A program made the translations under genes and the position numbers. A stretch of DNA of 61,944 nucleotides from a virus. Lineage: Duplodnaviria; Heunggongvirae; Uroviricota; Caudoviricetes. Where the stretch lies: the IMG/VR virus record IMGVR_UViG_3300031555_010392, positions 64,001-125,944 of that record; one strand, given 5' to 3'. The notes beneath the pieces are model-generated. The model worked only from the letters and a program-made list of their open reading frames with translations. It made no database searches and was not told where the DNA came from. This document shows, in pieces, positions 6,135 to 52,758 of the stretch. Positions within the stretch are counted from its first letter, which is position 1. Each line of letters begins with the position of its first letter.

Positions 6135-6189
6135 ATCGCAATAGCGTTTTATTGGTTGGCACATGAGGTCAATCTGAGTGATGAAACAA

Positions 6190-6470
6190 TATCCTGTTCC
6201 AGTATGTAGAGTATTGTGGAGCTCTCCGGGGGTTGTATGGGAACCACTAACTGGATAGGCTTTAAGCTGAAAGAAAACATATGGGCTGGTCGAAAGACCC
6301 TGGTCCACCGAGCGGCGGGGAATTTCCTTGCCATTTTTGTGCAACCGCGTGCAAACGCGTAACTCCTGGTTAATGAGTAGCGTTTAGGCGTTGCTCTGAT
6401 TTGAGGATTACCAAAGAGCCTTGTGCTCTTTGTTTTGCTTATATGGGTAGGCAAAGCTAAGAGCACAATG
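6190..6470 (+). ncRNA. Candidate structured non-coding RNA
   Basis: A run of hairpins with stable tetraloops (c-UCCG-g 6225-6228, GAAA 6292-6295, GCAA 6351-6354). Stems TCCAGT/ACTGGA and TTGTGCTCTT/AAGAGCACAA. No credible plus-strand ORF. Confidence 0.55.
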
Positions 6471-23296: not shown

Positions 23297-26200
23297 ATGA
23301 ACATGCCAGATGAATTAAGTGTAAAAATAGATGTTCTATTAGGCGTAAAGGAAGGCGAAGTAAAAAATATCAAGGCTCAGCTGGAAGACGAAAAAATAAA
23401 TGTCCCAGTTAATCTTGACGTGAAAGGGACAGATAAGGTAGATAAAAAACTTTCTCAGCTTCAGCAGCGTGCGCAAAAATATGCTGGTGAAATTCGAAAG
23501 ATTATAGCCAGTGTGCCTGAAATAGATAAGACTTTTAGAGGTTATACATTTTCTTCAGGAAAACTTAGGGATGCAAAATCTGAAATTCGTGGGCGCTTAG
23601 CTTTAGCAGAAAAAGAACTGACACCATATCTAAGACAATTAGAATCGCCCGATTTAACAGTTGATCAGCTTAAAGAAGCGCAAAAAGCCTCAAAGAAGGT
23701 TTTGGCAGATATATACCGCGCTCAAATGATGAGCGAAATGGCATCAGTCGGCAAAATGTTGACTCAAGGGGATAAGGCAGTTTCAAATGCTATTCTTCCT
23801 GATGAAGAAAGAAAGAAGCTTAAGAAAAATCTTTCCTTGTTGCGCAAAGACTACAATAAATTTTTTGATACCATCGATGAGAAGGCAAAGAAAATTGCGG
23901 TTGGCAAAGAGGATTTTTATGCTTTAAGAACAAGTGAGTTTGCTTCCATTGGCAAAATGGAGCGTGTACTTGAAAAAATTCCGCAGGAAATCGCTATTGC
24001 TGCAAATATTACCCCTGCTGTTGATCAAAAGGCAATTCAAACAGAAATTAATTCCGCGGTTGAAAACATAAAAATAACTAAGCCAGTTAAAGTGCCTATC
24101 GAGTTGATTGTTAAAGAGGATGTTAGCAGTGCCGATGATTCATCGGCGATTTCTAGTGTTGTTTCTTATAATGAAAAGAATTTTGGGAGCGCACTTAAGG
24201 CTGATGAGAAACTTCGTAATTTGTATGGAAAATTCCAGGATGATTATGAAGATCTTGTGCAACAGTTCCTCATGGGCGAGGAAGATGAAGAATATCGGCA
24301 AAAAGCTCAAAGTCTAATACAGGATGTAATTAACAATCGCAAAATGGAGCCTGGTAAGCTTCTGCAGGCGATTAGGGATAAATATAATAAAGACGGCAGC
24401 GAGTTTAATATTGGCAAGCGTGAAATTGGAAAAATACTTACTTTTGCTAATCATTTAGAGAATAAATTCGCCCCGGCTCTTGAAAAAACAATTGCGAAAA
24501 TTGAAACCGACCTATCTTCCAGAGTGCAGAAGTCAGCAATTGCTTTACAGCACACTATAGATCCTGAGAATCTCCTAAAAGCCTCAAAAACAAATGGCCT
24601 TATTGCCCCTAGTGGTGCCGTTTTTAATACGTCTCACGTGCCACAATTATATGGAAATGTTGGCCTATTTTTTGATGGCGCGACATTTGATCCTAGACTT
24701 CATCAAGATTCGCATTTGTTTGGAGCTGACGGCAATACACCGGTTGTAGGAAATTTAAAAACCAGAAAAATCAGGAAACAAGACGGGACTATTGAAACTC
24801 AATTATATAGTGAGTTAGAAAAAGCATGGTTGCCTTTTACTGCTGAAAATGCAGCGAATATCATGCGCAATGAATACCCGCTGGTCAATCTGCCCGGTCA
24901 TTTCGGGAAAAGTTTTGACGCTCCAGAAGATTTTGAAGAAGTCGGCGAGTCTCTGAAACAAGCATTTATAAAAAGGTATGCCAACTTTGATGAGCTGTTG
25001 GCAGATTCAGATCGTTTATTGGATGCTGTAAAAACCAATGGCGGTATAAAAGATGCTGGAAATATTGATGCGGATCAGCATAAGGCATACGCACAAAAAT
25101 ATAGAGAAATTCAAACTGATATTTTGAATGCTATGGGGAAAGATGCCATTGATAGCGTTGACCCACAAATTTTTAAGGCTGTTACAGATGCTATTGTTAG
25201 TGACACATCCCCGATGCTGGCAAATGAGAATGAATTTGTATCCTCTTTGCAAAAAAGCTTTGATGAAACGGGTATTCAACTAAATAACGAGATAATTCAG
25301 AAGTTGGTAAGCCTTAGAAACAGCATGGCGAACAATTTGGCCGATTATTTTGAAGCAAAAATTATGCGCGATGTCGGCATTGAAGAAGCTCGCGCAGCTG
25401 TTGTGCCGCGGAATGTTGATCCTGCGGTTCGCCAAGAACTTACAAAAAGAAATATCCCTATTTATGAATATGAATATACCGAACTCCCTAAAGCAAAAGA
25501 TTTTCAGGGAGATCAAAAAGCTTATAAAGAAGCCTTTGTTAGAATTAATGAGGCGAATGAAAGAGCTTATCTTGAAGCTGTTAACAGGGTAATTGCCGAT
25601 CATCCTGAGCTTAATTTAAGAAATTACAAGACAAAGTTGCCGCCAATTGCTGCGGATAGTAGCAAGAAAGAAGCTGAATTCCGTAAACAGGCAAATGACT
25701 TGATGGCTCGTTTTACACGTGCATCTTCTGAAGAGATTGTTCCTAAAGTAGACCCTTCTGAGATTGAGAATGCTGGCGCTGAGGCGAAACAACTCTCAAA
25801 TACTTTGGCAAATCTCGAGGGTGAAAGCACACATGTGCATGTTAATGCTGATGAGGTTAAAACAGCAACTAAAGAAGCGGAAAGGTTGCTTGCGCTTCCC
25901 GCGCCGCAATATGAGGAGCTATCTCCTTATCAAAAGCCTAGCGCAGAAGCGCTTCGCAATGTTGATGCTATTTATGATTGGACAACTTACGAGCGAGCGC
26001 TTGAACCGATTTGGAATAAAATGCGCGATGGGTTATCTCATCCTCAGTTTATCCCAATTGGCGGAAGGACCCTTCAGGATTTAGTTGATAATTATCGTAC
26101 TGGGCTACAGGGTGCCAATTTGTTGCCCGATGCGAGCGGCAGTATTGGCAGGTTTCCTGGGGTGGGTACTTCATCTGCTTCTATACCTGTTGATATAAAT

Positions 26201-28333
26201 GTGGATCCTGATATTCACGTAAATAATCCCGTAGAAGTAAAAGAAGAAGTCAAGAAGGTCGTAGAAAATGCAACCAAATCTAGTGGCTCCACAAAAGCAG
26301 AAGCAGATGTTGAAATAGAAACAAATGTTGAGATTGCCGATCCGCATGGCATGATGAATGACATCAAAGCAGAAATTGAAAAGAATAAAAAACTGGTTGA
26401 TGACATTAGCGAAATGCCTAGGTCGATAATGAGCAAACAACAGGCAGATAATCGTGTCAGTCAGTTGCAGCAAAATATAAAGCATCTTGAACATTTGCAA
26501 AATGTGCTGCAGCAAACGGGAAACATGCTGCCCGATAATTATGAGTCTATTTTTGCTCAGAGCAGGAAGCTTCAAGAGAAAGCTTTTAAAAATATCCATT
26601 TAGAAACCTTTGAGCAGCAGGGCGATAAGCTTAAAAATATGTTCTCTGAAATTACTCAGGCAATGGGCTCGTTACACGGCGATAAAGATTTCTCTAATCT
26701 GTTTGATGCCGCCTCTAATTCTTTGCAGGTTTACAGCGACCAGTATGCTAAAGTCCTTGAGCTTTCCAAGCAAGGCAACTTAACCGGTGAAGATATTGCT
26801 TCTTTAAATAAGGCATATGTTCAGGCTGCACACGATGTTGAGGCTTATGCGAAAGCGGTCAAAGACGCCTCGAAAGCTGAAGAAAAGCAAACCAACGCTG
26901 CTAAGAAAAATCAAGCGGCAATGGAGACTGCAAAAACAAAAATCCAAGAAATGCTTGAACTTCAGAAAAAATATGAAAAAGCATTCAAGGATCCTGCTTG
27001 GGCGCAGTCTTATAATAACATTTTAGCTGGCTATCAGGCCATTGGCCCCGATACAGAAAACGCCGCGGATAGGGTCGCAAGTCTTAACAAGCAACTTGCG
27101 GCATTAAAAGCCCAAGCTCGTGCGGCTGGCACCGCAACAACTACTTTTGGGACTTCACTTGAGAAAGCCTTTAGCCGTTTTGGCCGGTGGTTTAGCGCAT
27201 CTGAGATTTTCATGTTTATTGTCAATAAAACGAAAGAAATGATTGGCAATGTAAAAGCTATCGATTCTGCAATGACAGATCTCCGTAAGGTTACTGATGC
27301 GAGTGAAGGACAGTACGACAAATACTTAACTAGCGCAGCACAGCGTAGTGCTGATATGAGTGCAAGAATTACCGGCTATATTGGTGGGACAAATCAATTT
27401 GCGCGTCTTGGTTATGGTATTGAGGATGCACAAAAACTTGGTGAAGTCGCAACGATTTATGCCCAAGTTGGCGACGATATTCAAGGAATTGAGGATGCCT
27501 CTAGTAGTATTATTGCTACAATGAAGGCGTTTGATATTGAAGCAGACAACGCTATGTCCATTGTTGACAAATTTAACAGAGCTGGTAATGCTTACGCAGT
27601 TTCCAGCGGCAACATTGGCGCAATGCTTCAACGCTCTGCGGCCGCTATGGCATCTGCAGGAAACGATATTAATCAGACAATTGCCATGGGCACTGCTATG
27701 GCAGAAGTCAACCGCGACGCTGAAAAATCTGGCGCCGCGTTAAAAGTGCTTGCTCTTCGTCTAAGAGGTTCTAAAACTGAGCTTGAAGAGATGGGTGAGA
27801 GCACGGAAACCATGGCCACTTCAACTAGCAAACTTCGTGAGCAGATCCTAGCTCTTACGAACGTTGATGGTACTGGTGGCTTTGATATTATGGATGCAGA
27901 TGGTTTTAAGTCCACTTATGAAATGATCGATGGTATTGCCAACGCATTTAATAAGATGGATGATGGTAGCGAAAATGCCGCGGCTTTGTTGGAGCTTATT
28001 GCTGGTAAGAACCGTGCTTCTGATGTTGCCGGTATGATGAAAAACTGGGAAACGGCTAAAAATGTGTATAAAGATATGCTTAATGCCGAAGGCAGCGCAA
28101 TGGAAGAGTACGAAAAGTGGCAGAAATCCATTGAAGCTAAGTCTGAAAAGCTCGGTTCCAACTTTGAGCGTATGTCAGTTGCTGTTTTTGACACAGAAGT
28201 TCTCAGTGCATTCTATAATATTCTAAATAGCATTCTCTCTGTTTTCAGTGGAATTGCTGAAGTTGCGGGTGGCATTCCGACTATTGTTGGACTTGCTTTT
28301 GCTGCTTTGGCAAAAATTAAACCTGATTCTGGT
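23297..28333 (+). CDS. Tape measure protein, exon 1
   Basis: TP901-type TMP core at ~27250-28150 (IDSAMTDLRKVT...IVDKFN...LALRLRG); ends ...KPDSG at the group I 5' splice site. Confidence 0.88.
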
Positions 28334-28766
28334 ATTGTAAAAGTACAATATGCCCCGCTTATGAAGAACTCATTGGCGGCGTAAACTCGTATATGCTGGG
28401 AAAAAGATGATGAGATAGATCAGCTACAACATGGCCCGAAAGGGCGAGTGTGAATGCAGGTGGGGAAACCCTTCACGGGAGTGGGAAAGAAAATGGTCTA
28501 TTAAGTATATGGCGCGAGCCTACGTACAGGTGCTTCCATAATAAATAGCACACGTCTTTGGTCAGCAGGGGAATGATGAAAGTTGGAGCCTGATCAGCTC
28601 CGGCGATTGGATCAGCATTACCCTCACAGACTGCAAGGAGTTGGGGCGATAGAGATTCGCCTTTGATGGACAGTCGGACTGGTGGAGTGAAAATGGATAG
28701 CTCCACGCGTGAGTTTAAAGACTACACGCTGGCTAACGCTGGTGGCTGCGAAAGTGCCATAAGCTA

Positions 28767-28795
28767 TTGAAAAAAAGAAATAATAGGAGTACAAT
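28767..28795 (+). promoter_or_regulatory. Sigma-A promoter for the plus-strand cargo operon
   Basis: TTGAAA-N17-TACAAT, followed by RBS AAGGAGGTG. Confidence 0.75.
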
Positions 28796-28816
28796 GATTT
28801 AAAAGGAGGTGAGCTC

Positions 28817-29062
28817 ATGGCTTCTAAGCAACAGGAGGAAGACTTTCAGTGGTTTTTGAAAAATTATGCTTCATTGTCAGAGAAATATGCCCCCGCATAT
28901 TTGATTATCAAAAACGGCTCTGTACTTGGAGCTGAAGTGACTCCTGGTGACGCACTAAATAAAGCGCTTATTACAGAAGAAATGGGTAGTTTTATTATTC
29001 AAGAGTGTGATGGGACTGTTGAAGCATATACTAGTTATATTTCTTCTACATGTTTTTTATAA
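28817..29062 (+). CDS. DUF5678-like small protein (intron cargo)
   Basis: FQWFLKNYASLSEKY..YLIIKNGSVLG pattern. Confidence 0.6.
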   Translation: MASKQQEEDFQWFLKNYASLSEKYAPAYLIIKNGSVLGAEVTPGDALNKALITEEMGSFIIQECDGTVEAYTSYISSTCFL

Positions 29063-29094
29063 GATAAATTATACAAAAGACGGGATGAAACGCA

Positions 29095-29583
29095 ATGCTT
29101 TCTTCGCCAATTAGAGCATTTACTTCAACTTATCCTTCATTGAGCAAAAAGTTGATCAATGAAGCTGTGGTTGGTTACAATAAACAAGAGCTAACAGTGC
29201 GAGCTCAATGGGACACCGGTGCTACAACAACTTGTATTTCTAAAGATGTTGTTTCTCACTTAAATCTTATCCCTATTGGTTCTAGACAAATATCTACACC
29301 ATCTGGGAGCTCGGTTGTAAATACTTATATACTTGATATTAAATTGCTCAACAATGTGACGATTCCGCAATTAATCGTATGTGAAACGGAAATTGGGGAT
29401 CAAGGCATTGGGCTACTTGTTGGCATGGATATTATTGGGTTAGGTGATTTTGCTGTTAGCAATTGGGGCGGAAAAACAATTTTTACATTTAGAACCCCCT
29501 CTCAAAGAATAACCGATTATGCAAAACAACTATCCGTGCAAAATGTGATAGGCTCTCTTCATGGAAAGAAACATAGAAAATAA
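29095..29583 (+). CDS. Retropepsin-like aspartyl protease (intron cargo)
   Basis: WDTGATTTCIS catalytic DTG and C-terminal LLVGMDII motif. Confidence 0.85.
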   Translation: MLSSPIRAFTSTYPSLSKKLINEAVVGYNKQELTVRAQWDTGATTTCISKDVVSHLNLIPIGSRQISTPSGSSVVNTYILDIKLLNNVTIPQLIVCETEIGDQGIGLLVGMDIIGLGDFAVSNWGGKTIFTFRTPSQRITDYAKQLSVQNVIGSLHGKKHRK

Positions 29584-29607
29584 AAGAATATTTTGATTGT
29601 TTGTTGG

Positions 29608-29868
29608 CTATTCTCTCCCCAGAATTTCTATGATTTGTGGTCTAAAACCATCCACAAAACTTTGGGCGTCTTCACAGCAAAACACCAAAAACAACATTAA
29701 GGTCAATGCGCAACATCCATGTTCACCTTTTTCAATGGCAGCATAGGATCTGGGGTCAATCAACAAGATCTCAGCAAATTGTGCTTGAGTCATTTGATTA
29801 TCAAAACGCACTTTGGATAAACGTTCTATCAAATAAGTTTGAAGAGCGCATTTACACGCAGTTTTCAT
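29608..29868 (-). CDS. XRE-family HTH protein (intron cargo)
   Basis: MTQAQFAEILLIDPRSYAAIEKG; RBS AAGGAG. Confidence 0.8.
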   Translation of the reverse strand: MKTACKCALQTYLIERLSKVRFDNQMTQAQFAEILLIDPRSYAAIEKGEHGCCALTLMLFLVFCCEDAQSFVDGFRPQIIEILGRE

Positions 29869-29993
29869 TGGCTATTATCTCCTTTTTAGTGATGTGGAAG
29901 ATAATTTTAATGAAAAATGGTAGATGCTGCCATGAGGTATACATCATGAATTTTAAAGAAAAAAAGAAAAGACCGTTAATTTCGGTCTGTAGA

Positions 29994-30022
29994 TTGACTA
30001 TTGAATGAGGATATGATAGCAT
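29994..30022 (+). promoter_or_regulatory. Sigma-A promoter for a small RNA
   Basis: TTGACT-N17-TAGCAT with an extended -10 TG; no ORF downstream before the terminator. Confidence 0.65.
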
Positions 30023-30027
30023 AAGTA

Positions 30028-30138
30028 CGAAGTGAGGACTTCACTGTGCGTAAAGCACCCCATAACAGCTAATTATCAAATCTAATTAGCTAATCAAAAG
30101 TATCGTGCAAGCTGTCAACTGCACGGTACTTTTTGATT
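30028..30138 (+). ncRNA. Candidate antitoxin sRNA (~110 nt)
   Basis: Lies between the promoter and a terminator; hairpins GAAGT/ACTTC, GTGC/GCAC and AGCTAATTA/TAATTAGCT; convergent with a small hydrophobic ORF. Confidence 0.55.
30092..30138. terminator. Bidirectional terminator
   Basis: AATCAAAAGTATCGTGCA/TGCACGGTACTTTTTGATT, with an A-tract and a T-tract on the two sides. Confidence 0.75.
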
Positions 30139-30230
30139 TAGCCTGCGAAATGAGCGTACATTTGGAAGACTAAACGTAGAAAGTTGATGATAGTGATAAT
30201 AATATCACAGATAGAATTAGTCTTTCTCAT
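30138..30230 (-). CDS. Candidate type I toxin, 30 aa hydrophobic peptide MRKTNSICDIIITIINFLRLVFQMYAHFAG (not in the ORF track)
   Basis: RBS GAAAGGGGGTG, ATG 30230, TAA 30140-30138 abutting the terminator. Confidence 0.65.
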   Translation of the reverse strand: MRKTNSICDIIITIINFLRLVFQMYAHFAG

Positions 30231-30373
30231 CACAACACCCCCTTTCAGTATTACCTGTTAGGGATGTTGCCGCACAGTGCTTCGTGCTTATGCCATTATT
30301 TACTATACTACTGAGGGAATTATAGTGCAGAAGAACGGGTGTTCTTACTATTTATGTTTGTGTTTTGCAGCGC

Positions 30374-30868
30374 CTATTTCTTTATTGATAGTTGATGCTC
30401 AAACAGCTCATGGAACATAAGCTGCAATTGAATGTCTTCAAATTTGATTAGAAAGACATCGTTTGTTACATCAACAATTTTACCAGCACCAAGCTTTTTA
30501 TGAAGGATAGTAGCCCCAATAAAATTATTGTAAATAGAATTGGTGCGCACAGAAGCAGGGGTTCGCGTTTTCTTGGATTTGGTTGCTATGCGATTTTTCT
30601 TTTTCTCCTCTTGTTGGTGTAACCATGCCTCATTGGCCTTTCTGATTTTTTCCTGATCATATTCGATTTTGCGTCGCATGATCATAAGATTTCTTTGATC
30701 TTCTGTGTAGTATTTGCAATATGTAGAGGAAGAACAGGGCCCGTATTTGAAGAGGCAGTTTTTAGTTTCTTTATTATAGTAGGCGCAGCGTAATTTTGAT
30801 CTATTCTTATCGATCTTTTTTACGTATTCTATGTGCCAAGGAGTCCCCTGAAGTTGAGAAATGCTCAT
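30374..30868 (-). CDS. Cys4 domain + coiled coil + C-terminal Tudor/SH3-like domain (intron cargo)
   Basis: CAYY..C....C....C; C-terminal GATILHKKLGAGKIVDV. Confidence 0.6.
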   Translation of the reverse strand: MSISQLQGTPWHIEYVKKIDKNRSKLRCAYYNKETKNCLFKYGPCSSSTYCKYYTEDQRNLMIMRRKIEYDQEKIRKANEAWLHQQEEKKKNRIATKSKKTRTPASVRTNSIYNNFIGATILHKKLGAGKIVDVTNDVFLIKFEDIQLQLMFHELFEHQLSIKK

Positions 30869-30877
30869 AAGTATACC

Positions 30878-31330
30878 TCACCACATATGCCCACATTTCT
30901 TGCATCTTTTGGTTTTGCCAATCTTATTGCTTGCAAGCCCCCAGGCAGCTACAGAGAATGCACGACGGATTGTGGAGATTTCTTCGATGATCTGAGGTGG
31001 AGCTCCGCATTGGGGACAACATTTTGCTCGGAAAGCAGCTTGACGAGCGAGTGTTTCTCTATGAGAACGGGCATATTTTTGGGCCTCATCCATAATTTGC
31101 GTTACTTCTTTTTCACGCGCAGTAACAGACATCATTGATAATTCAGTCAGCGTATGGACTTCCCATCCCCAATGCTTTGGTGTAACGACATCAACTTTCC
31201 CGCCGCAATTTTTGTGTGTGGCTCTCATATTATCAAAAAGTTGCAGAGCGCTTTCTTCAATGTCAAGTGCTGGAGCCACAGCTCCGCACGTTTCACAATA
31301 CCAAAAATAATCATCATCCCATTTTGACAT
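30878..31330 (-). CDS. Zinc-ribbon protein (intron cargo)
   Basis: CETC/HKNC and CPQC...CKKC pairs flanking a short hydrophobic AFSVAAWGLAS segment; RBS AAGGAGG. Confidence 0.7.
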   Translation of the reverse strand: MSKWDDDYFWYCETCGAVAPALDIEESALQLFDNMRATHKNCGGKVDVVTPKHWGWEVHTLTELSMMSVTAREKEVTQIMDEAQKYARSHRETLARQAAFRAKCCPQCGAPPQIIEEISTIRRAFSVAAWGLASNKIGKTKRCKKCGHMW

Positions 31331-31355
31331 TTTTAAATACCTCCTTATATTTATT

Positions 31356-31384
31356 AGTATACCTATGCCTATTTATAGTGTCAA
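31356..31384 (-). promoter_or_regulatory. Near-consensus sigma-A promoter for the minus-strand cargo operon
   Basis: TTGACA-N17-TATACT on the minus strand, ~30 nt from the 3' splice site. Confidence 0.85.
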
Positions 31385-31413
31385 CATTGATCATGTAGAC
31401 ATTTAGCCACAAG

Positions 31414-34400
31414 TTGATTTTACCTTGGCAACAAATAATTGGTGCAGATGGTAATGCGTTTTTAGGTTCCATTTTTACTGCAAATAGAGACAGAAAAGCT
31501 GTTGCTTTGGAAGTACAAAAAAGAGATTTCGCATTTCTTGAGGAATATAATTCTGCCTCAAAATCACGTCGTGATGAAATCGAAAAATTAATTTCTCCTC
31601 AGACTGCGGGTTTTGTTAATTTTGATCTTTTGAAAGACAAAGCTGACGACGCAGATGAGCACATCAAAAGCGTTAAGAAAACATTAGAAGGAATCAACAA
31701 GATTGAATTCCAAGGCTGGGGCAAGAAAGCGGTTAACGCTCTCAAATCAGTCGGCCAAGCCTTTGTTGGTATTGCGGCTCAGGCTCTTACTGCTATGGCT
31801 GTTACTCTGGCTATTGAAGGCATTGTCACAGTTTTCGATAACATCATCAATGCTTCTCAGAAGGCCATTGACGCCGCAGACGAGACTAAAGCTGCGTGGG
31901 AGTCCTTAGACGCAACCCAGAAAACCGCCAGAGAGACAATTGACCAATATGGCGAACGTTATGATGAATTGTCTGAGAAAAGGGGTAAACCTTCTGGGTT
32001 GAGCACTTCCGAGTACGAAGAATATAAAGATATTTGCAACGAACTTGCTTCCGTATTTCCAGAGTTGGTAAGTGGCTGGGATGAGCAGGGAAATGCCATT
32101 CTTAGGGCTAATACAAGTATTAAAAAGCTGGAAGAGTCGTATCAGTCTTTACTTCGTTTAAATCGTGAAGCAAAGAGTGAAGATTTTGCGGAAACAGTCA
32201 TGGAAGGCGCTTATGCAAGATTGTATTCTGCTGATAAAGGTAGTTATACGGATTACCTCGAAATGCGTCGTGCAGCCGAAGAGTTGGCTAGGATGCAAGG
32301 CAGAGGTGAAAACGCAGAGGCCTATGAATTTGTTGCTCCCGGTGTAATTGGCGATTATGGCCAATACTGGTTTGGTAAAGATGGAATACTAAGCAGCAGT
32401 AACAAATTTATTGAACAAATCAATGGATTTATTAGCAGTGGCGACTTGAGCGCCATTGGGAAAATCCCAGGAGACCTTGCTGCATATTTTGGAACAGTAA
32501 CCGCTGCCGCTGGAGCTGCTGAATATGCCGCTGATGAGATCATTAAATTAAGTGACATTGATGCACTTGATTATATTACCGATCATACCGGAGCGCTAAA
32601 GCAAGGCACATCATTAGACGATGGTTTAAATCAGTTAGCTAATGCTGTGATTGGACAGATCATGTCTATAGAGCTTATAGTTGCTCAAAAAGCAGAGTCT
32701 TTGAGCTATCAGGCGGATCGTGATCTTGTCACTTTACAGGATGAATACCGTAATATGACTATTAACGCGTTTGATCGGTATTCAAACTATAAATATGGTG
32801 GCGGCATACTGGCCGAATCTGGATTTGAAGAAGATTTTAAAAATTATCTTGAAAGAGTGCCGTATGCTTTTGGACATGACTGGTTTGGTGAAATAGACGC
32901 CAAAGATCCGGCAGCTTTTGCTGATAAGTACAAAAATGAAGTACTGAACAAATTAAGAATTCCTACTGTTTCTGAAATGGTTGAGGGAATGTACCAATCT
33001 GTTACGGATTATTTCTCTGGAGATATGTCATATGGCGATCTTAAGAGAAAGTTGGATGGATACGGTAAAGATGGGCCATTCCAAAACGACCGTGTTTGGT
33101 CTGCATTTATTGAAGCCGCGTTTGGTGGTGAAGGTGTTCAGCAAGCGCAAGAAGATGCTTTTAAGCGAGCAAAAAACATCTTAAAATTTGGAGATGCTTC
33201 CTCGCTTGAGGATTTGACATTTGAACAATTGTCATTTCTTGCAGGATATAAAGGGGAAAGTATTTATTCACTTGACGAATTGAATGCTCTTATGAAAGAG
33301 GATGCAATAAAAAATCAAAGTGAATTAGAAGAAATTATTAAGTCCTACACCGACTTTAACGAGGCTCGCACCAAATCACTGTCCGCTCTTTCAGCCCTTA
33401 GCGAGCAAGGCCACCTTACTCCTGACGAATGGAAACAGCTTCAGGCGTCTGGCTATGATGCTGCAATTGCTGAAACACAGTATGGCTCCAAGTATGTCGA
33501 TTATCAGACGATGCGTGATATCGACGAAGCTAAAACTCAGGAAAAGATTGTAGAAAATCTTGAGGCGAAAGCTTTAAAGCAGGAAAAGCTTAATGAGCTA
33601 ACTGATGAGCACACCAAGCTCCTTGCTGAAAATTCCAAGGAAGCCGAGAAAAAGGCAGAAGAAATCAAAACTCTTGAAAATGAGATTGATTTGATTGATC
33701 TTATGAATGAGAGTCTTTTGGAGTCTACTTCTGCTCTTAATGCGTTTAAGCAGGCCTCCAGTATGGCCGAGCTTGGTGACAACTTCCGCTCTACCAAAGA
33801 AGCTCTTGATGCTATTAATGAGGGTCTTGAGTCTGGCCGTGTGGGCACCAACAAATTCAAAGCTGCGCTTGAACTGCTTGGTGGCAGAGGGATGCTTGAA
33901 CGGTTTGAATCCGGCGATTTCTCTCGTAAAGAGCTGAAGCAATACACTGAGCAACTTGGCAAATATTATGACGAAGATGGCAACATCAATCGTAGTAAGG
34001 CATTTGATACTTTTGTAAAAGAAGGTATAGGGCGCTATTTCAAAGGTGAAAACGGAGAAAAGCGTTTTGCATTTAATGCTGGGACTACGATGGCTCAGAT
34101 CCAAGAAAAGCTTGGCGGCATTACGGAAGAGATGGCTACATACTTCCTTGATGCTATTAATGAGTATGCTGTTGGTGCAAATGAAATCCTTGGGCCTGAT
34201 GGTTATGAGAGTTATCAGGAAAGAGCGAAAAAAGCCAGAGAAGAAGCTGAGGCAAAAGAGAGTGCAAGAATTGAACAGCTTAATGGAATTGCAGAAAATG
34301 CTTTAACGGCCTCTACTGAACAAATTGCGGCAGCTACTGAAACAAAGGCAGCGGCTACACTTATGAAAGAAGCTGCGGCTGCATGGCTGGCGTCTGCGCC

Positions 34401-37400
34401 CAAGGAAACTGAACCGTCTGCTACACCTATTGATTCTCAAATTGAATTAGAAAAAACAGCGATAGATAATCTCTTTAAAGAGCATATTGGAGCAACGCCT
34501 GTTCCAACTGAAGATACAGTTCAAGTGAATGGGGACATGTATGTGCAACCGCACGATTCAAGTGCCCCAATAGCGAAGCCATTCTTTAAAGACCCATTAG
34601 TGGGATTGGAAGGTACAGACAACTATCAGATTGAAGCACAGGCCATTGAGGCTGCTAGTGATATTTTAAAGGCGGCACTTCCTCAGCATTCTGATTTAGG
34701 CAGAGAGCCTGTTTCTCTCTCGGACGAAGTTTATAGCGAGAATAGAGCTGATGCTAATGCCCAAATTGATGCCAATGTATCTTATATCAAAGGCTTGTTC
34801 CAGGCTTTTGAAAGTGCAGGCGTGGATATGGCTCAAATTGATTTGGGGGCTTTGCAATCAAATGTCCAGAGTGTTGTAGATACACTTAAAGTGCTTGGGT
34901 ACAGTGGCGAAGCGCTTGACCAAGCAGACGCAATACTGCAAGGAATCAATACCAAATTGTTGGCATTGAAAGCGGCCGAAGCGGACTTGCCTTCTACGCC
35001 TCCTGTTCCGTCTGAAGTATCCTCAGTGATACCCAATAGAATTCCTGAAAAACTGCCAGAGAACGCTAGTGTATTTGAAAGCCTTGTGGGCGGTTTGACG
35101 GCTGTTACTCAGGAGACGAAGCAAGCATTAATCGATCATGCTATTCATCTAAAGGAAGCTTACGTTACCTTAGAAGATTACGAGAATTCTCAAATGGTAG
35201 AAAACGCCATTCAGAAAATCATGGATCTTCAAGTTGAGGGAATTACTCCTTATGTGCGTCCCGAACCTTCAGAGGTGCCGGAGGATGCAAAAGCGAGGAT
35301 ACCTGATAGCATCCCTGATATGCTCCCTGAAAGCGCGAGTGCATTTGAAAGTCTCGTGAGAGGGCTTACTGTCGTTACTGCGGAAGTGCAAGCAAGGCTT
35401 CTTGATCATGCTAACAGCTTGAAGGAAGCCTACACCAACATGCTCTCGATAACAGGAGATTATGAGGGTTTGGCTTTAATTGAGAATGCTCTCAGCCAAA
35501 TCGAGAGTCTTGAAATTGTAACTGATGCTCCTGTAGAAGTGGCTCCTGGTGCAGAAAATGCAGTTCCGTCTGCAACAATGAGCATTCATGAACAATTAAT
35601 GGCGCTGGGTGCTATGGGGCATGGTGCATTAGCATTTGCTGGATATAACGATGTAAACGCGATTAGAACTGAAAGAACAAAATCTTCAGAGACCACCCCT
35701 GCCGGGGAAGAGCAAGAGATTGAAAGTGAATTACATCTTGACAATGAAGCTGCTCTTGATGCGATTGATGAAGTAAAGGAGATAGCGGAAGAACCCTTAG
35801 AGGGTACTTTTGAGGTTGATCCTACATCTGCTGAGACTGCGGTAACGAATGTAGTTACAATGATTGAAACGATAACAACCAAGCCCGTTGATGCAAACAC
35901 AGAGCCTGCAGAGGGCAAGGTTGGAACGTTGGATTCTCGCATTCGCGCAACTGTTACCAAAGGTGTTGATACCAGTCAAATTGAAGGCGCTATCTCTTTA
36001 GCCGATGCGCTTCACAGCTCTCTTTCAAGGCCTGCTACAAAACGTGTTACAGTAGTTCAAAGTGGCGGATTAACGTCAGGTGGTTCAGTAACCGCTGTTG
36101 ATGGCGGTAAAATGGCCTCTTCTGGTGGGATCGCACGAGTTGATGGAGGGGCGGCATATGCTGGTGGTACAGCCCTTGTTGGCGAAATTGCTCCTGAAAT
36201 TATTGTTGACCGTAAGAGTGGTACATGGAGACTTGTTGATTATCCACAGCTTACCCATTTGAATCCTGGGGATATTGTTTTCAATGGTGAGCAAACTAAG
36301 GATATACTTGCTGGTAAGCGCACTGGTTTTAGTAAAGCTTTTGTAGATGGCAATGTTAAGGGTGGTTTGAGTTTTGCGAGTGGAGAAAAGCGGTACTTAA
36401 CAGCCGCTATGGGAGAATTTCAGGCTGGGAGTTTCGGCCTTAGCACTCCTTATAAAAGCCAAGCCATACCGGATGGTAAGAAAAAAAGCTCCGGCGGTGG
36501 TGGATCTTCTCGTGGAGGCTCCGGCGACGATGAAGAAAAAGACTGGAAAGACTGGATTGTCCGAGTTCTTGAAATTGCAAAAGAAGCTACAGAGAAAGCT
36601 ATTGACGATGTGGCTAAGAAAATTGGCTACCTCGCACAGAATGCTCAGTTGGATGTAGCTCTTAAAGCAAATCAGAACGAGATTGAAAAGAATGAGGCTG
36701 CTCAAAAGCGCTATATGGAACAGGCTGCGCAAATGCAAAGAGAGCATGGTTTAAGCGCTGACATTGTAAAAAGGATTCAAGAAGGCACGATTGATATTAC
36801 TAAGTATGATCAAGAAATGCTTGACAAGATTGATGATTATCAAACATGGTTTGAGAAAGCGGAAGATTGTCGAAAAGCTGTGGAAGAGCTGAAGGAGCAA
36901 GAGCTTGAGCTTCAGCGCCAAAAACTTGATAATATCGACAAATATTACAACCACAAGATTGACCGTCTTGAAGCCCAAATCAGTAAAAATGACTCCATGC
37001 TTGATCGGAAGGGCGCTTACGGCGAAGAGATTTTTCAACAAGATTATGTTGATGCCATTAAAGCAACCCAAGACAAGATTGCTCAACTGCAGGCTGAACG
37101 GAAGGCTTATGCAAAGCAGTTTGATGTACTTGTGAAGTCTGGGGCTCTTCAGCCTGATAGCAATGAGTGGCATGAGTACATATCTACTCTTGAAGAAGTG
37201 GATGAATCCATTATAGAAACGCAAACAGACCTCGCAGAGTTAAAAGATGCCATGGAGAACATAAAGCTTACTAATTTGCAGTATGCTCTTGATCGTCTTG
37301 AAGCTTTGCAGGATGCTTTAGAGAGTTTCTTGGATTTCCATGATTCTCAAGGCGTTGATAATAATGCTGATACCTATATTGATCTGATTCAGAATGCTTT

Positions 37401-37716
37401 CGACGAGATTGATAACCTTGAAATGCAAAATGAATTCCTCCGTGGGCAGCAAGAAGGACTGGATGTCCTGAGCGAGAAATGGCAGGAATTGCAGCAAGAG
37501 ATTGAAAGCAATGAACAGAGCATTTGGGAGATTAAGTCTGCGCAGGAGGATTGGAATGATACAATCGCTGACTTGCAGATTCAGATGCTTGAACGTGAAC
37601 GTGAAGAGCTTGAAAAGACCAATGACGCGCTGGAAAGACGCAAAGAAATGGAAGATGCTCTTGAAGACCTTGAAAAGGCTAAGAGCCAGAGAACGAAACT
37701 CATATACAGAGAGGGT
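31414..37716 (+). CDS. Tape measure protein, exon 2
   Basis: Long helical/coiled-coil ORF with no RBS at its start; ends ...IYREG at a group I 5' splice site. Confidence 0.85.
35010..35530 (+). repeat. Tandem ~270 nt (90 aa) duplication inside the TMP
   Basis: IPNRIPEKLPENASVFESLVGGLTAVT (from 35029) versus IPDSIPDMLPESASAFESLVRGLTVVT (from 35299). Confidence 0.8.
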
Positions 37717-38951
37717 AAACACCGATGCCCCTTTACGCAGTAATGTGTATTGCAACAGGTGAGTATATCGGTTAAAGCCTGAAGGAGACAGGTAAGACCG
37801 AGGTAAATATTGTTTATTGGCAAAATAGTAAGGAGTTATTTTGCCGCCATATAATCGGGTACCAGAGAAAGAAACAATAAAACTATGTAATAGTATAAAC
37901 TTGGAATATATTAATACGATTTATGAAAAGGTCGCGTATGTTGAATTTATATGTAAAAAGCATGACTACAAAGGGGTGCAAAGAATAAACCGCGAAGCTC
38001 TTTGTAGATGGGCTCAGAAAGGCACCTGTAATTGCGCACATATTAACAGAGACGCAGAAGATTTGCGTCGTGAACCAAATTTGGATAAAGATGTTATTGT
38101 ATTGGGTGAATATATAAAATCCAATATCCCCATTTTGTGCAAATGTAAAAGATGTCAAAGTGAATTCATGGCGACACCAAATAAACTTCAGCAAGGTCGC
38201 GGGTGCCCCAATTGTCGTTTTGAAAAAATAGGTGAACATAATCGCCTTGGTTTAGAAACCTATAAGCAACGCTTACAAAAGAATTTCCCTGACTTAGAAT
38301 TAGTCGGTGAGTATTCAGGGATGGAACATTCAATAACGTTTCGCTGTAAACGGTGCGGTAAAGTTCAGAAATGCTCTTCTGCATGGAGGGTGCTGTCTGG
38401 TGATCGCGGGTGTTCTAAATGCAATTCATCTAAAGGTGAAAGAAAAATTGCTAATTATTTGGATGCGCACAATATTTTTTATGAAGCACAAAAGCAATTT
38501 TTACAGTGTCACGCTAAGAAGCCTTTGCGATTTGATTTTTATATTCCCAGTTTGAATACCTGCATTGAATACCAAGGAGAACAACACTATAGACCAGTTG
38601 ATTTTGCTGGTAGGCATGATGGGAGCCATATAGTTAATCATTCATCTTTGCTGGAAAGAGATGATATTAAACGCTCTTTTTGCTCGCAAAATGCAATTAA
38701 TTTGGTCGAAATTCCATATTGGGAAATAGGAAACATCGAAGAAAAACTAAAAGATTTATTATGCTAATAAACAATATAACCGTAGAGACTGTAATGGTGG
38801 TTACAGCAATGTGACCACCTGACTCACCCTCCTCGAAAGAGGATGAAGATCCAGTCCGAACTCGCGCTATATCTCCAAAATAATAAAACGCGAGAGATGG
38901 GTTGAAAGACCTATCCGCCACACAAGTGGTTTATAAGTAACAGATTTATTG
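37717..38951 (+). mobile_element. Group I intron with endonuclease ORF in the TMP 3' region
   Basis: 5' exon ends GGT with P1 GCCC. R element CGTAGAGACTG and S element AAGATCCAGTCC. P10 CCGAT/ATCGG, terminal G at 38951. Splicing gives YREG|IGFVYEAD. Confidence 0.93.
37841..38767 (+). CDS. Intron-encoded homing endonuclease: Zn-ribbon repeats + Vsr/DUF559-like nuclease
   Basis: Repeated CxxC...GRGCPxC units; SKGERKI...FDFYI...IEYQGEQHY. Confidence 0.85.
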   Translation: MPPYNRVPEKETIKLCNSINLEYINTIYEKVAYVEFICKKHDYKGVQRINREALCRWAQKGTCNCAHINRDAEDLRREPNLDKDVIVLGEYIKSNIPILCKCKRCQSEFMATPNKLQQGRGCPNCRFEKIGEHNRLGLETYKQRLQKNFPDLELVGEYSGMEHSITFRCKRCGKVQKCSSAWRVLSGDRGCSKCNSSKGERKIANYLDAHNIFYEAQKQFLQCHAKKPLRFDFYIPSLNTCIEYQGEQHYRPVDFAGRHDGSHIVNHSSLLERDDIKRSFCSQNAINLVEIPYWEIGNIEEKLKDLLC

Positions 38952-39362
38952 ATCGGATTTGTATATGAGGCAGATCAAGAAGCTATCAAAGAAGCCCAAG
39001 ATCGCGTTGATGAACTCAGGCATAATGAAATGCTTGACAAAATTGACGAGGCTATTTCGGCTATCGAGGATAACAAGAAGAACGACAACATTTATGATTT
39101 CCAAGGTTCCAGCGTAATTAAGGACATCACAGATGAAGATGCTTTGAAGCTCTATAATTTGATTCATGGCTCTACGGATCTTGATGCCTTGCTTGCAGAT
39201 AAAGCATTTGCAGATTTGAAAAACGTTGGTGGAAACACCGCGTCTTCAACAGTCATTCAAATTGGCGATATCCGCCTTGAAGGCGTGCAAGACGCTAACT
39301 CGCTTGCGCAAAGCATAGTCAGTGAATTGCCAAATCGGCTTATCCAGGCAATTTATAAATAA
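38952..39362 (+). CDS. Tape measure protein, exon 3
   Basis: In-frame continuation IGFVYEADQEAIKEAQ... to the stop. Confidence 0.88.
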   Translation: MGFVYEADQEAIKEAQDRVDELRHNEMLDKIDEAISAIEDNKKNDNIYDFQGSSVIKDITDEDALKLYNLIHGSTDLDALLADKAFADLKNVGGNTASSTVIQIGDIRLEGVQDANSLAQSIVSELPNRLIQAIYK

Positions 39363-51716: not shown

Positions 51717-51803
51717 ATGAGCTTATGGCATTTGGTGTGGATCATCCCGCTGTCGGGTGGTATTGGGTTATTCGCTGCGGCTATTTTAAAAATGAGCGAT
51801 TGA
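51717..51803 (+). CDS. Small 28 aa membrane peptide (not in the ORF track)
   Basis: RBS AAGGAGG; MSLWHLVWIIPLSGGIGLFAAAILKMSD. Confidence 0.45.
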   Translation: MSLWHLVWIIPLSGGIGLFAAAILKMSD

Positions 51804-51855: not shown

Positions 51856-52758
51856 ATGATAACAGGACAGCAATTGGCGCAAATGGGCGTCGAATTGGCG
51901 ACTGGCAAGCGTATTGATTATGATGATGTAGACTGCCAAGCTTTTGTGGAGTTGATATTTGACGAGTGCGGGAAGGACATTAGTTATTCTGGCAGCAATG
52001 ATATGTACCGCAATGCGTGCAGTTGGATAGGGACAATTGAAGAAGCAAAAAGAATTGGCTATCTCGTTCCAGGGGTAGCCCTTTTCATCCATTCTTTTAA
52101 CGGTGGTGAACCAGAGAAATATCGCAAGGATGGAAAGGGTAACGCAGAACATGTAGGCCTTTACGTTGGAGAAAATGCTCTGGAAGACACTGATAAAAAT
52201 GGGGAGTGGAGAATTTGCAATGTTGTTCATTCTTCTGCGTCTATGGATCGTGTTGCTGGGTCTACACTAAAAAATGGATGGACACATGTTGGATTATGGA
52301 AACAAATCGATTATGGTATCCAGATCCAAAACAGTGAAAATGGCATATTGGAGAATTCCATGATTGGAGATGAAAAAATGGCAATTGAAGAGAGTTTTAT
52401 TTATGCGACTGTAAAGACAGCAAATGGTAGCCCCTTGAATTTCCGCACCAAGAAAAGCACAAAAGCTGATTTAGTGGCGCGTGTGCCGGAAATCACCAAT
52501 GGAGCTCGTGTGAAAGTATTGCGCGATGACGGTGATTGGTGCAAAATTTCCTACAATGGCTATAACGGTTATGTTTTAAGCGAGTTCCTTAACTTTGCTA
52601 ATACTGTTAAGGAAGAGGCAGAGTGGGTAGATCAGACAATTGGCGATATGGATGATAAAGCAAAATTCTACCGCGTCTATGTTGATTTTACTACAAAGGA
52701 TGAGGCTCTTGTTTTCCAAAAAGCTATGCAAGGGTGCCAAGTAGGTTCAGTAAAATAA
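51856..52758 (+). CDS. Endolysin: NlpC/P60-like (papain-fold) catalytic domain + SH3b
   Basis: DCQAFVE...HVGLY catalytic Cys/His; LNFR...GARVKVL..DGDWCKISYNG..GYV. Confidence 0.8.
   Translation: MITGQQLAQMGVELATGKRIDYDDVDCQAFVELIFDECGKDISYSGSNDMYRNACSWIGTIEEAKRIGYLVPGVALFIHSFNGGEPEKYRKDGKGNAEHVGLYVGENALEDTDKNGEWRICNVVHSSASMDRVAGSTLKNGWTHVGLWKQIDYGIQIQNSENGILENSMIGDEKMAIEESFIYATVKTANGSPLNFRTKKSTKADLVARVPEITNGARVKVLRDDGDWCKISYNGYNGYVLSEFLNFANTVKEEAEWVDQTIGDMDDKAKFYRVYVDFTTKDEALVFQKAMQGCQVGSVK

Follow-up and report, generated by a model that had tools for sequence, protein, structure and literature searches.

Does the short, structured stretch of DNA that lies between two long tape-measure reading frames of a phage encode a type I toxin-antitoxin (TA) module, and if not, what does it hold? 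The locus is part of a window of 61,944 nucleotides (one strand, positions 64,001 to 125,944 of the virus record IMGVR_UViG_3300031555_010392), which makes up the second half of this 125.9-kb provirus record from IMG/VR. A preliminary description had proposed a hidden type I TA-like arrangement, made up of a small hydrophobic open reading frame (ORF), a convergent RNA, a shared terminator and a bracketing inverted repeat. The features listed in that description are real and non-random, each of them better than chance. Judged from its sequence, the cassette of ~370 bases (about 29960-30330) may constitute an orphan, par-like module of the type I TA type, a reading that we hold tentatively and rate a little short of even.

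Genomic setting of the cassette

The tape-measure protein (TMP) is distantly related, at ~30% identity, to its counterparts in Brevibacillus phage Sundance and in ~100-kb Enterocloster bolteae phages, and the record also encodes an anaerobic ribonucleotide reductase of the NrdD type and a tyrosine integrase. Together these genes suggest that the source is a temperate phage infecting an anaerobic Firmicute, the integrase making lysogeny plausible. The cassette is located within a ~3-kb island (28385-31413) between long tape-measure ORFs at 23297-28384 and 31414-37743, and the island carries genes on both strands:

28385-31413, plus strand: an 81-aa ORF and a gene for a retropepsin-like aspartyl protease
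28385-31413, minus strand: an XRE-type HTH gene, a 150-aa zinc-ribbon gene and a 164-aa gene

It had been suggested that the cassette is cargo of an intron. Rfam lent this context no support, since no intron model matched at E<=10, a result to be read with the proviso that divergent introns can escape a model; searches of the sequences flanking the island for group I and group II introns were likewise negative at E<=5-10. When the TMP of Enterocloster phage CB473P1 was compared with the proposed junction, homology ended where the proposed exon 1 ends and did not resume in ORF2. Following the first TMP ORF there is a GC-richer, structured, non-coding segment (28334-28770, plus strand; -144 kcal/mol, z -3.35), for which Rfam returned no match, intron models at E<=10 included. 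The second TMP ORF has no Shine-Dalgarno (SD) sequence, and a near-consensus plus-strand promoter, TTGACA-16-TATATT (11/12), is located just upstream of it at 31324-31351. A second gap in the TMP reading frame holds an ORF for an HNH homing endonuclease (37841-38767, plus strand; phrog_559, E 3e-53), and an Rfam intron search around it (37600-39050) gave no match.

Among the neighbouring genes, the aspartyl protease (28817-29583, plus strand) matched Pfam Asp_protease_2 (E 8e-7) and, weakly, the PADLOC candidate defence protein PDC-M08B (E 8e-4), and together with the upstream 81-aa ORF it may form a two-gene defence-candidate pair. In the 150-aa protein (30878-31330, minus strand) the CxxC pairs are invariant and a WGLASxKIGK...CKxCxHxW block is conserved at the C-terminus; three metagenomic homologues were found, with 45-66% identity and no family assignment. 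The 164-aa protein was encountered only as identical copies, on 14 contigs, and a profile search of viral contigs returned nothing. Elsewhere in the window, an Rfam drum RNA (6176-6329, plus strand; 88.5 bits) is directly followed by a DUF3800-XI RNA (62.5 bits), both being described families.

The peptide reading frame and its leader

The elements of the cassette are as follows:

29960-29988, minus strand: second terminator (T2), a 6-bp GC stem followed by UUUUCUUUUUUUCUUU (-7.6 kcal/mol, z -2.6)
29994-30022, plus strand: promoter-like site for the plus-strand RNA, with a predicted start near 30027-30029
30013-30073, plus strand: left arm of an inverted duplication, which repeats the toxin leader in the same sense and extends from the -10 region to the hairpin loop
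30027-30138, plus strand: putative antitoxin-like RNA of ~110 nt, predicted from the 9/12 plus TG promoter match
30054-30061, plus strand: copy of the anti-SD arm, AGCACCCC, the predicted partner of the toxin SD at 30241-30234
30096-30138, both strands: bidirectional intrinsic terminator (T1), a stem-loop with U-runs on both sides
30138-30230, minus strand: ORF of 30 aa, MRKTNSICDIIITIINFLRLVFQMYAHFAG, encoding a candidate membrane-active peptide
30232-30270, minus strand: SD-sequestering stem-loop, in which the 5' arm 30270-30260 (GCAACAUCCCU) pairs with 30242-30232 (GGGGGUGUUGU)
30250-30299, minus strand: right arm of the inverted duplication, the toxin leader, as delimited by local alignment

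The 30-aa ORF first reported for this locus (30230-30138, minus strand) is present, the ORF list giving it from a GTG start as 30138..30233, and the strong ribosome binding site attributed to it was confirmed. The SD is the 11-nt sequence GAAAGGGGGUG (30246-30236), located 7 nt before the ATG, and its duplex with the 3' end of 16S rRNA was calculated at -18.6 kcal/mol. Among the 275 ATG ORFs of 25-60 aa in the window this duplex ranks first, the next best reaching -12.7 kcal/mol, and the ORF also ranks first across the whole 126-kb record.

The peptide was modelled by AlphaFold2 as one helix covering residues 3-29 (pLDDT 88.9). Its hydrophobic moment is 1.49, compared with 0.60 +/- 0.31 for permutations (p 0.005), and the polar residues D9, T13, N16, R19, Q23 and H27 share one face of the helix. 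On this model the peptide is an amphipathic single helix, and its amphipathic periodicity provides evidence of selection on the encoded peptide. Hydrophobicity is moderate (best 19-residue Kyte-Doolittle window 1.7, rank 25 of 275); in its size and its potential transmembrane helix the peptide falls within the range of type I toxins (<60 aa, hydrophobic). The charges R2 and K3 are N-terminal, and the C-terminus (...MYAHFAG) has no charged tail. In a feature search of the ESM Atlas the three nearest clusters were all type I toxins (DinQ at 0.84, TisB at 0.81 and 0.80), scores that lie below 0.9 and provide a lead only; an out-of-frame hydrophobic 30-aa ORF, included as a control, returned only unnamed 'hypothetical' clusters.

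These properties bear on the possibility that the region is non-coding and regulatory, with the ORF left untranslated, the repeats acting either as paired HTH operators in the DNA or as a long-range read-through stem in the RNA, and the two terminators merely insulating the HTH gene from convergent transcription. ORFs of 30 codons are common in this AT-rich DNA, a gene for an HTH_19/HTH_3 protein lies 150 nt away, a perfect 9-bp palindrome is present at 30067-30091, and the full 30015-30300 segment folds with z ~-8 on either strand, all of which would suit a regulatory spacer. However, an 11-nt SD at ideal spacing to an ATG, and the strongest of 275, is hard to obtain by chance, and amphipathic periodicity would be unexpected in a frame that is never translated. 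In addition, both repeat motifs are unique in the 126-kb record and absent from the HTH gene's own promoter. We consider a purely non-coding role to be quite improbable.

Other small membrane ORFs are present in the record. A very hydrophobic 28-aa ORF, MSLWHLVWIIPLSGGIGLFAAAILKMSD (51717-51803, plus strand), which has the second-best SD among the small ORFs, is located just upstream of a 300-aa ORF (51856-52758) and may encode a small membrane protein of a lysis region. Three clustered hydrophobic ORFs of 48-53 aa with good SDs are found just upstream of the window (record positions 61241-63155, plus strand).

The SD of the 30-aa ORF is predicted to be sequestered within its own leader. The hairpin has an 11-bp stem (-19.7 kcal/mol, z -5.0), 0/200 shuffled sequences folded as well, and the predicted probability that the SD is unpaired is ~0.01. 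The folding energy of the translation initiation region is -26, compared with -14.1 +/- 4.9 for 36 long genes with good SDs, making it more structured than 35 of the 36. The right arm of the duplication additionally contains a weak hairpin (GCAUA...UGUGC, -5.7 kcal/mol, not significant), which would be 5'-terminal if transcription starts near 30296.

No sigma-A-like toxin promoter was found from the end of the 164-aa gene to the leader (30373 to 30295), where only -10-like hexamers are present, yet a near-consensus minus-strand promoter is located upstream at 31384-31356. The 30-aa ORF may be the last cistron of an operon of the 150-aa and 164-aa genes that is driven from this site. One alternative to a TA module builds on this arrangement and proposes that the third product of the minus-strand operon (150 aa, 164 aa, 30 aa) is a gated small membrane peptide and not a TA toxin, for example a superinfection-exclusion or membrane-modulating moron. 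T1 would then merely be the terminator shared by two convergent operons, and the plus-strand 'sRNA' would be the 3' end of the 81-aa ORF/protease transcript, or would not be made. A terminator scan identified no plus-strand terminator between the protease gene and T1, so T1 and the 3' end of the 'plus RNA' would exist in any case. Furthermore, a strong SD, a hairpin over it and an amphipathic helix argue for a translated peptide and not specifically for a toxin, and the small membrane ORFs elsewhere in the record are in keeping with a peptide of this kind. We regard this alternative as somewhat unlikely.

The inverted duplication and the predicted plus-strand RNA

The inverted repeat that had been said to bracket the locus was recovered as two blocks, 30019-30032/30280-30293 (one mismatch) and 30042-30050/30271-30279, and this 14+9 bp repeat proved to be the core of ~60 nt of homology (30013-30073 versus 30299-30250). 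The local alignment score of the duplication is 42, compared with 15.3 +/- 2.4 in shuffled sequences, and 0/2000 shuffles reached it. Because the leader is duplicated in inverted orientation, the predicted plus-strand RNA is a same-sense partial copy of the toxin leader; it comprises the -10 region, the 5' hairpin and the anti-SD arm and continues into the hairpin loop, with the SD arm missing. Among the features of the cassette, only this inverted duplication was not found described for known systems.

It had also been proposed that a full-length toxin mRNA could pair its 5' and 3' ends through these repeats. The 14+9 helix was indeed closed in the predicted minus-strand fold (z -8.1), but such fold-back requires transcription to read through T1, which is possible because T2 lies at 29988-29960.

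Inverted arms might equally be the mark of a MITE-like relic, that is, a non-autonomous mobile element with terminal inverted repeats lying between convergent operons, the ORF and hairpins being by-products. The ~50-60 nt of inverted terminal homology around ~180 nt of structured DNA resembles such an element. Nevertheless, it is present as a single copy in the record and was found in none of the phage, plasmid, viral and metagenome collections, no target-site duplication was noted, and the arms carry promoter and leader features and do not end the unit. A mobile-element relic is, in our judgement, very hard to credit.

The extended -10 promoter ascribed to the plus strand was found at 29994-30022 as TTGACT-17-TGaTAGCAT. 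The TTGACT-17-TAGCAT site matches the consensus at 9/12 positions plus the TG, this being a consensus match only, and the chance of a TG-extended site occurring in the right ~140-nt zone and strand was estimated at ~0.01; promoter-like sites are enriched in the island (21 versus 9.5 +/- 3.2 expected). The RNA predicted from this site folds at -38.1 kcal/mol (z -5.1) into a 5' hairpin, a single-stranded stretch containing AGCACCCC, a 9-bp AU-rich hairpin (30067-30091) and the terminator, and within it the anti-SD copy is partly or wholly single-stranded. The palindrome underlying the AU-rich hairpin, AGCTAATTA-7-TAATTAGCT, sits between the anti-SD copy and T1 and could form a hairpin in either RNA or serve as a protein-binding site.

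The shared bidirectional terminator was also borne out, with arms at 30096-30109 and 30120-30133. T1 folds at -17.3 kcal/mol on the minus strand and -19.7 kcal/mol on the plus strand (z ~-6 on both), and its stem starts with the final base of the ORF's stop codon. A YUNR motif (UUGA) is present in the toxin-strand loop and is not significant on its own. In the TMP sense direction T1 is a good terminator as well (-19.7 kcal/mol, U5), so that reading through the island as one TMP pre-mRNA would need antitermination. T2, with its long U-run, is located directly upstream of the plus-strand promoter-like site and closes the cassette before the HTH gene's promoter; its position at 29988-29960 insulates the unit 29960-30330 on the minus strand. 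We rejected a leader-peptide attenuator acting on the HTH gene, since read-through of T1 only reaches T2 and hence would have no regulatory output.

It is these elements for which a gated peptide at the end of an operon has no ready account. That alternative leaves the 60-nt inverted duplication of the leader and the exposed anti-SD copy unexplained, and it does not address why an extended -10 should be located ~110 nt from T1, why T2 should insulate the unit, or why the translational lock should be so tight.

Cofolding was used to assess how the two predicted RNAs might meet. Their perfect complementarity is confined to the 43-nt T1 stretch, and the cofolded pair reached -144.8 kcal/mol, compared with -100.5 kcal/mol for the monomers. 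As long as the leader was intact, the SD remained in its own hairpin and the sRNA formed no pairs with it. When the 5' arm of the leader was removed (5' end at 30260 or 30256), AGCACCCC at 30054-30061 paired with the SD at 30241-30234, forming 8-11 bp with a ddG of -7 to -13 kcal/mol, and with the later start site three extra pairs reached the AUG. The duplex between the sRNA 5' domain and the initiation region was modestly better than with shuffled sRNAs (p ~0.03).

If the cassette is a par-like TA-type module, it could operate as follows. The toxin mRNA would be made from a weak promoter of its own or as the tail of the 150/164-aa operon, and it would be born silent by virtue of the SD hairpin. 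The plus-strand RNA, in excess, would, as in par, use the 43-nt terminator stem-loops to dock on the toxin mRNA, and we infer that such contact at the terminator loops is the most economical model. Should the leader be opened or trimmed, the exposed AGCACCCC of the plus-strand RNA would cover the SD in trans. Once the element was lost or host transcription shut off, the shorter-lived RNA would decay, peptide would be made and the membrane would be damaged, with post-segregational killing or abortive infection as the outcome. The hok-like alternative that follows from the preliminary description would instead have a transcript that reads through T1 to T2 fold back on itself. The biological roles proposed for the locus, stabilisation of the intron or prophage or abortive infection, are purely inferential.

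A more specific claim can be framed, in which the cassette is a functional type I TA system of a new family whose antitoxin originated when the toxin leader was duplicated in inverted orientation. The antitoxin would then be a spare anti-SD arm acting in trans, docked by the terminator and guarding against 5'-processed, translatable mRNA, and the whole would reside in a mobile island splitting a tape-measure gene. We judge this full version to be unlikely.

Relatives and known systems

A tblastn search with the peptide, which had been suggested as a check of whether the whole arrangement is conserved, returned no match in 50,697 phage records or in plasmids, and the same was true of blastn with the cassette DNA. 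Exact and degenerate DNA patterns of the cassette gave no genuine match in viral or metagenome contigs; metagenome matches to back-translated DIIITIINF were chance occurrences in unrelated frames in 19/19 cases. The sole phmmer match to the peptide among 1.84 billion representatives, a 415-aa protein, was spurious. For the peptide nothing was found in Pfam (E<=0.1), PHROGs, PADLOC or NCBIfam, and Rfam antitoxin and sRNA families gave nothing relevant for 29950-30350 at E<=10 or for the whole window at gathering threshold. A paralogous second cassette was sought in the whole record and rejected. With neither a homologue nor a paralogue found, the TA reading has no evolutionary support, which is its most serious gap.

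Were the par-like reading correct, the type I TAs of phages of gut Clostridia type would gain an orphan toxin family, and the cassette would illustrate a simple route to an RNA antitoxin, namely an inverted copy of the leader's anti-SD arm placed beside a shared terminator. It would also bear on how an island that interrupts an essential virion gene persists, if that island carries a cassette for killing or abortive infection. If the cassette is merely a gene for a gated small peptide, or a regulatory spacer, it is ordinary. Type I TAs of prophages are already well known, and the support presented here consists of in silico anatomy.

How far that anatomy is Firmicute type I TA-like, as first claimed, differs between its parts. 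The likeness holds for the SD hairpin, the amphipathic helix, the terminator stem at the stop codon, the anti-SD copy and T2, but it fails for the toxin promoter and for the charged tail, neither of which was found.

The resemblance to the Escherichia coli systems TisB/IstR-1 and DinQ/AgrB is one of peptide type only, a 27-30-aa amphipathic helix with a polar stripe. The primary toxin transcript of TisB and DinQ is translationally inert. Unlike the cassette, these systems are Gram-negative, SOS-controlled and divergent in gene layout, and the peptide did not match Pfam PF13939 (TisB) or PF28061 (DinQ).

In hok/sok, the fbi element mediates fold-back inhibition by pairing the ends of the toxin mRNA. 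A full-length transcript that reads through T1 to T2 and closes its ends with the 14+9 bp helix would resemble this element, whereas the cassette has neither a peptide of the Hok family nor a mok-like reading frame, and the read-through itself is required.

Type I TAs of Firmicute prophages combine small membrane peptides with convergent antisense RNAs and have been proposed to stabilise prophages; they are common in Clostridia and in Bacillus prophages, and a charged toxin C-terminus is typical (PMC6563280). Named counterparts are CD0956.2/RCd10 and CD0977.1/RCd11 of Clostridioides difficile and bsrG/SR4 and yonT/SR6 of Bacillus subtilis. In these toxins a hydrophobic N-terminal part is followed by a Lys-rich or charged C-terminus, whereas the cassette peptide has no charged tail; the stretch over which their antitoxins and toxin mRNAs overlap is also longer than in the cassette.

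The closest layout is that of par from Enterococcus faecalis pAD1 (Fst, RNA I/RNA II), together with SprA1/SprA1AS (PepA1) of Staphylococcus aureus. The latter likewise consists of convergent, 3'-overlapping genes and a 30-aa helical membrane peptide, and SprA1AS acts on translation via a 5' domain outside the 3' overlap (PMC4885055). There is no sequence similarity between SprA1/SprA1AS and the cassette, in which a short contact of 8-11 bp is predicted to form in trans only once the cis hairpin has been opened.

For par, convergent promoters, a shared terminator and a 5' stem-loop over the toxin SD have been described (PMC7472228). Par, and the cassette as predicted, consist of convergent units that share a bidirectional intrinsic terminator, at whose complementary stem-loops contact between the RNAs could begin, and both have an intramolecular 5' stem-loop over the toxin SD (in the cassette, in silico), a peptide of ~30 aa and a location on a mobile element. 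With respect to convergent promoters, the shared terminator of the cassette is strong on both strands and a promoter-like site is present on the antitoxin side, with none found on the toxin side. Membership of the Fst/Ldr (par-like) peptides was rejected, there being no Pfam Fst or NCBIfam match, no PXXXG, no proline and no charged tail, and the repeats being inverted. In par, the direct repeats DRa and DRb make the two 5' ends complementary, whereas no direct repeat links 30027-30095 with 30215-30260 in the cassette. Here the repeats are inverted, so that the two predicted RNAs have the same sense in their 5' regions, and it is solely the copying of the anti-SD arm that creates complementarity to the SD.
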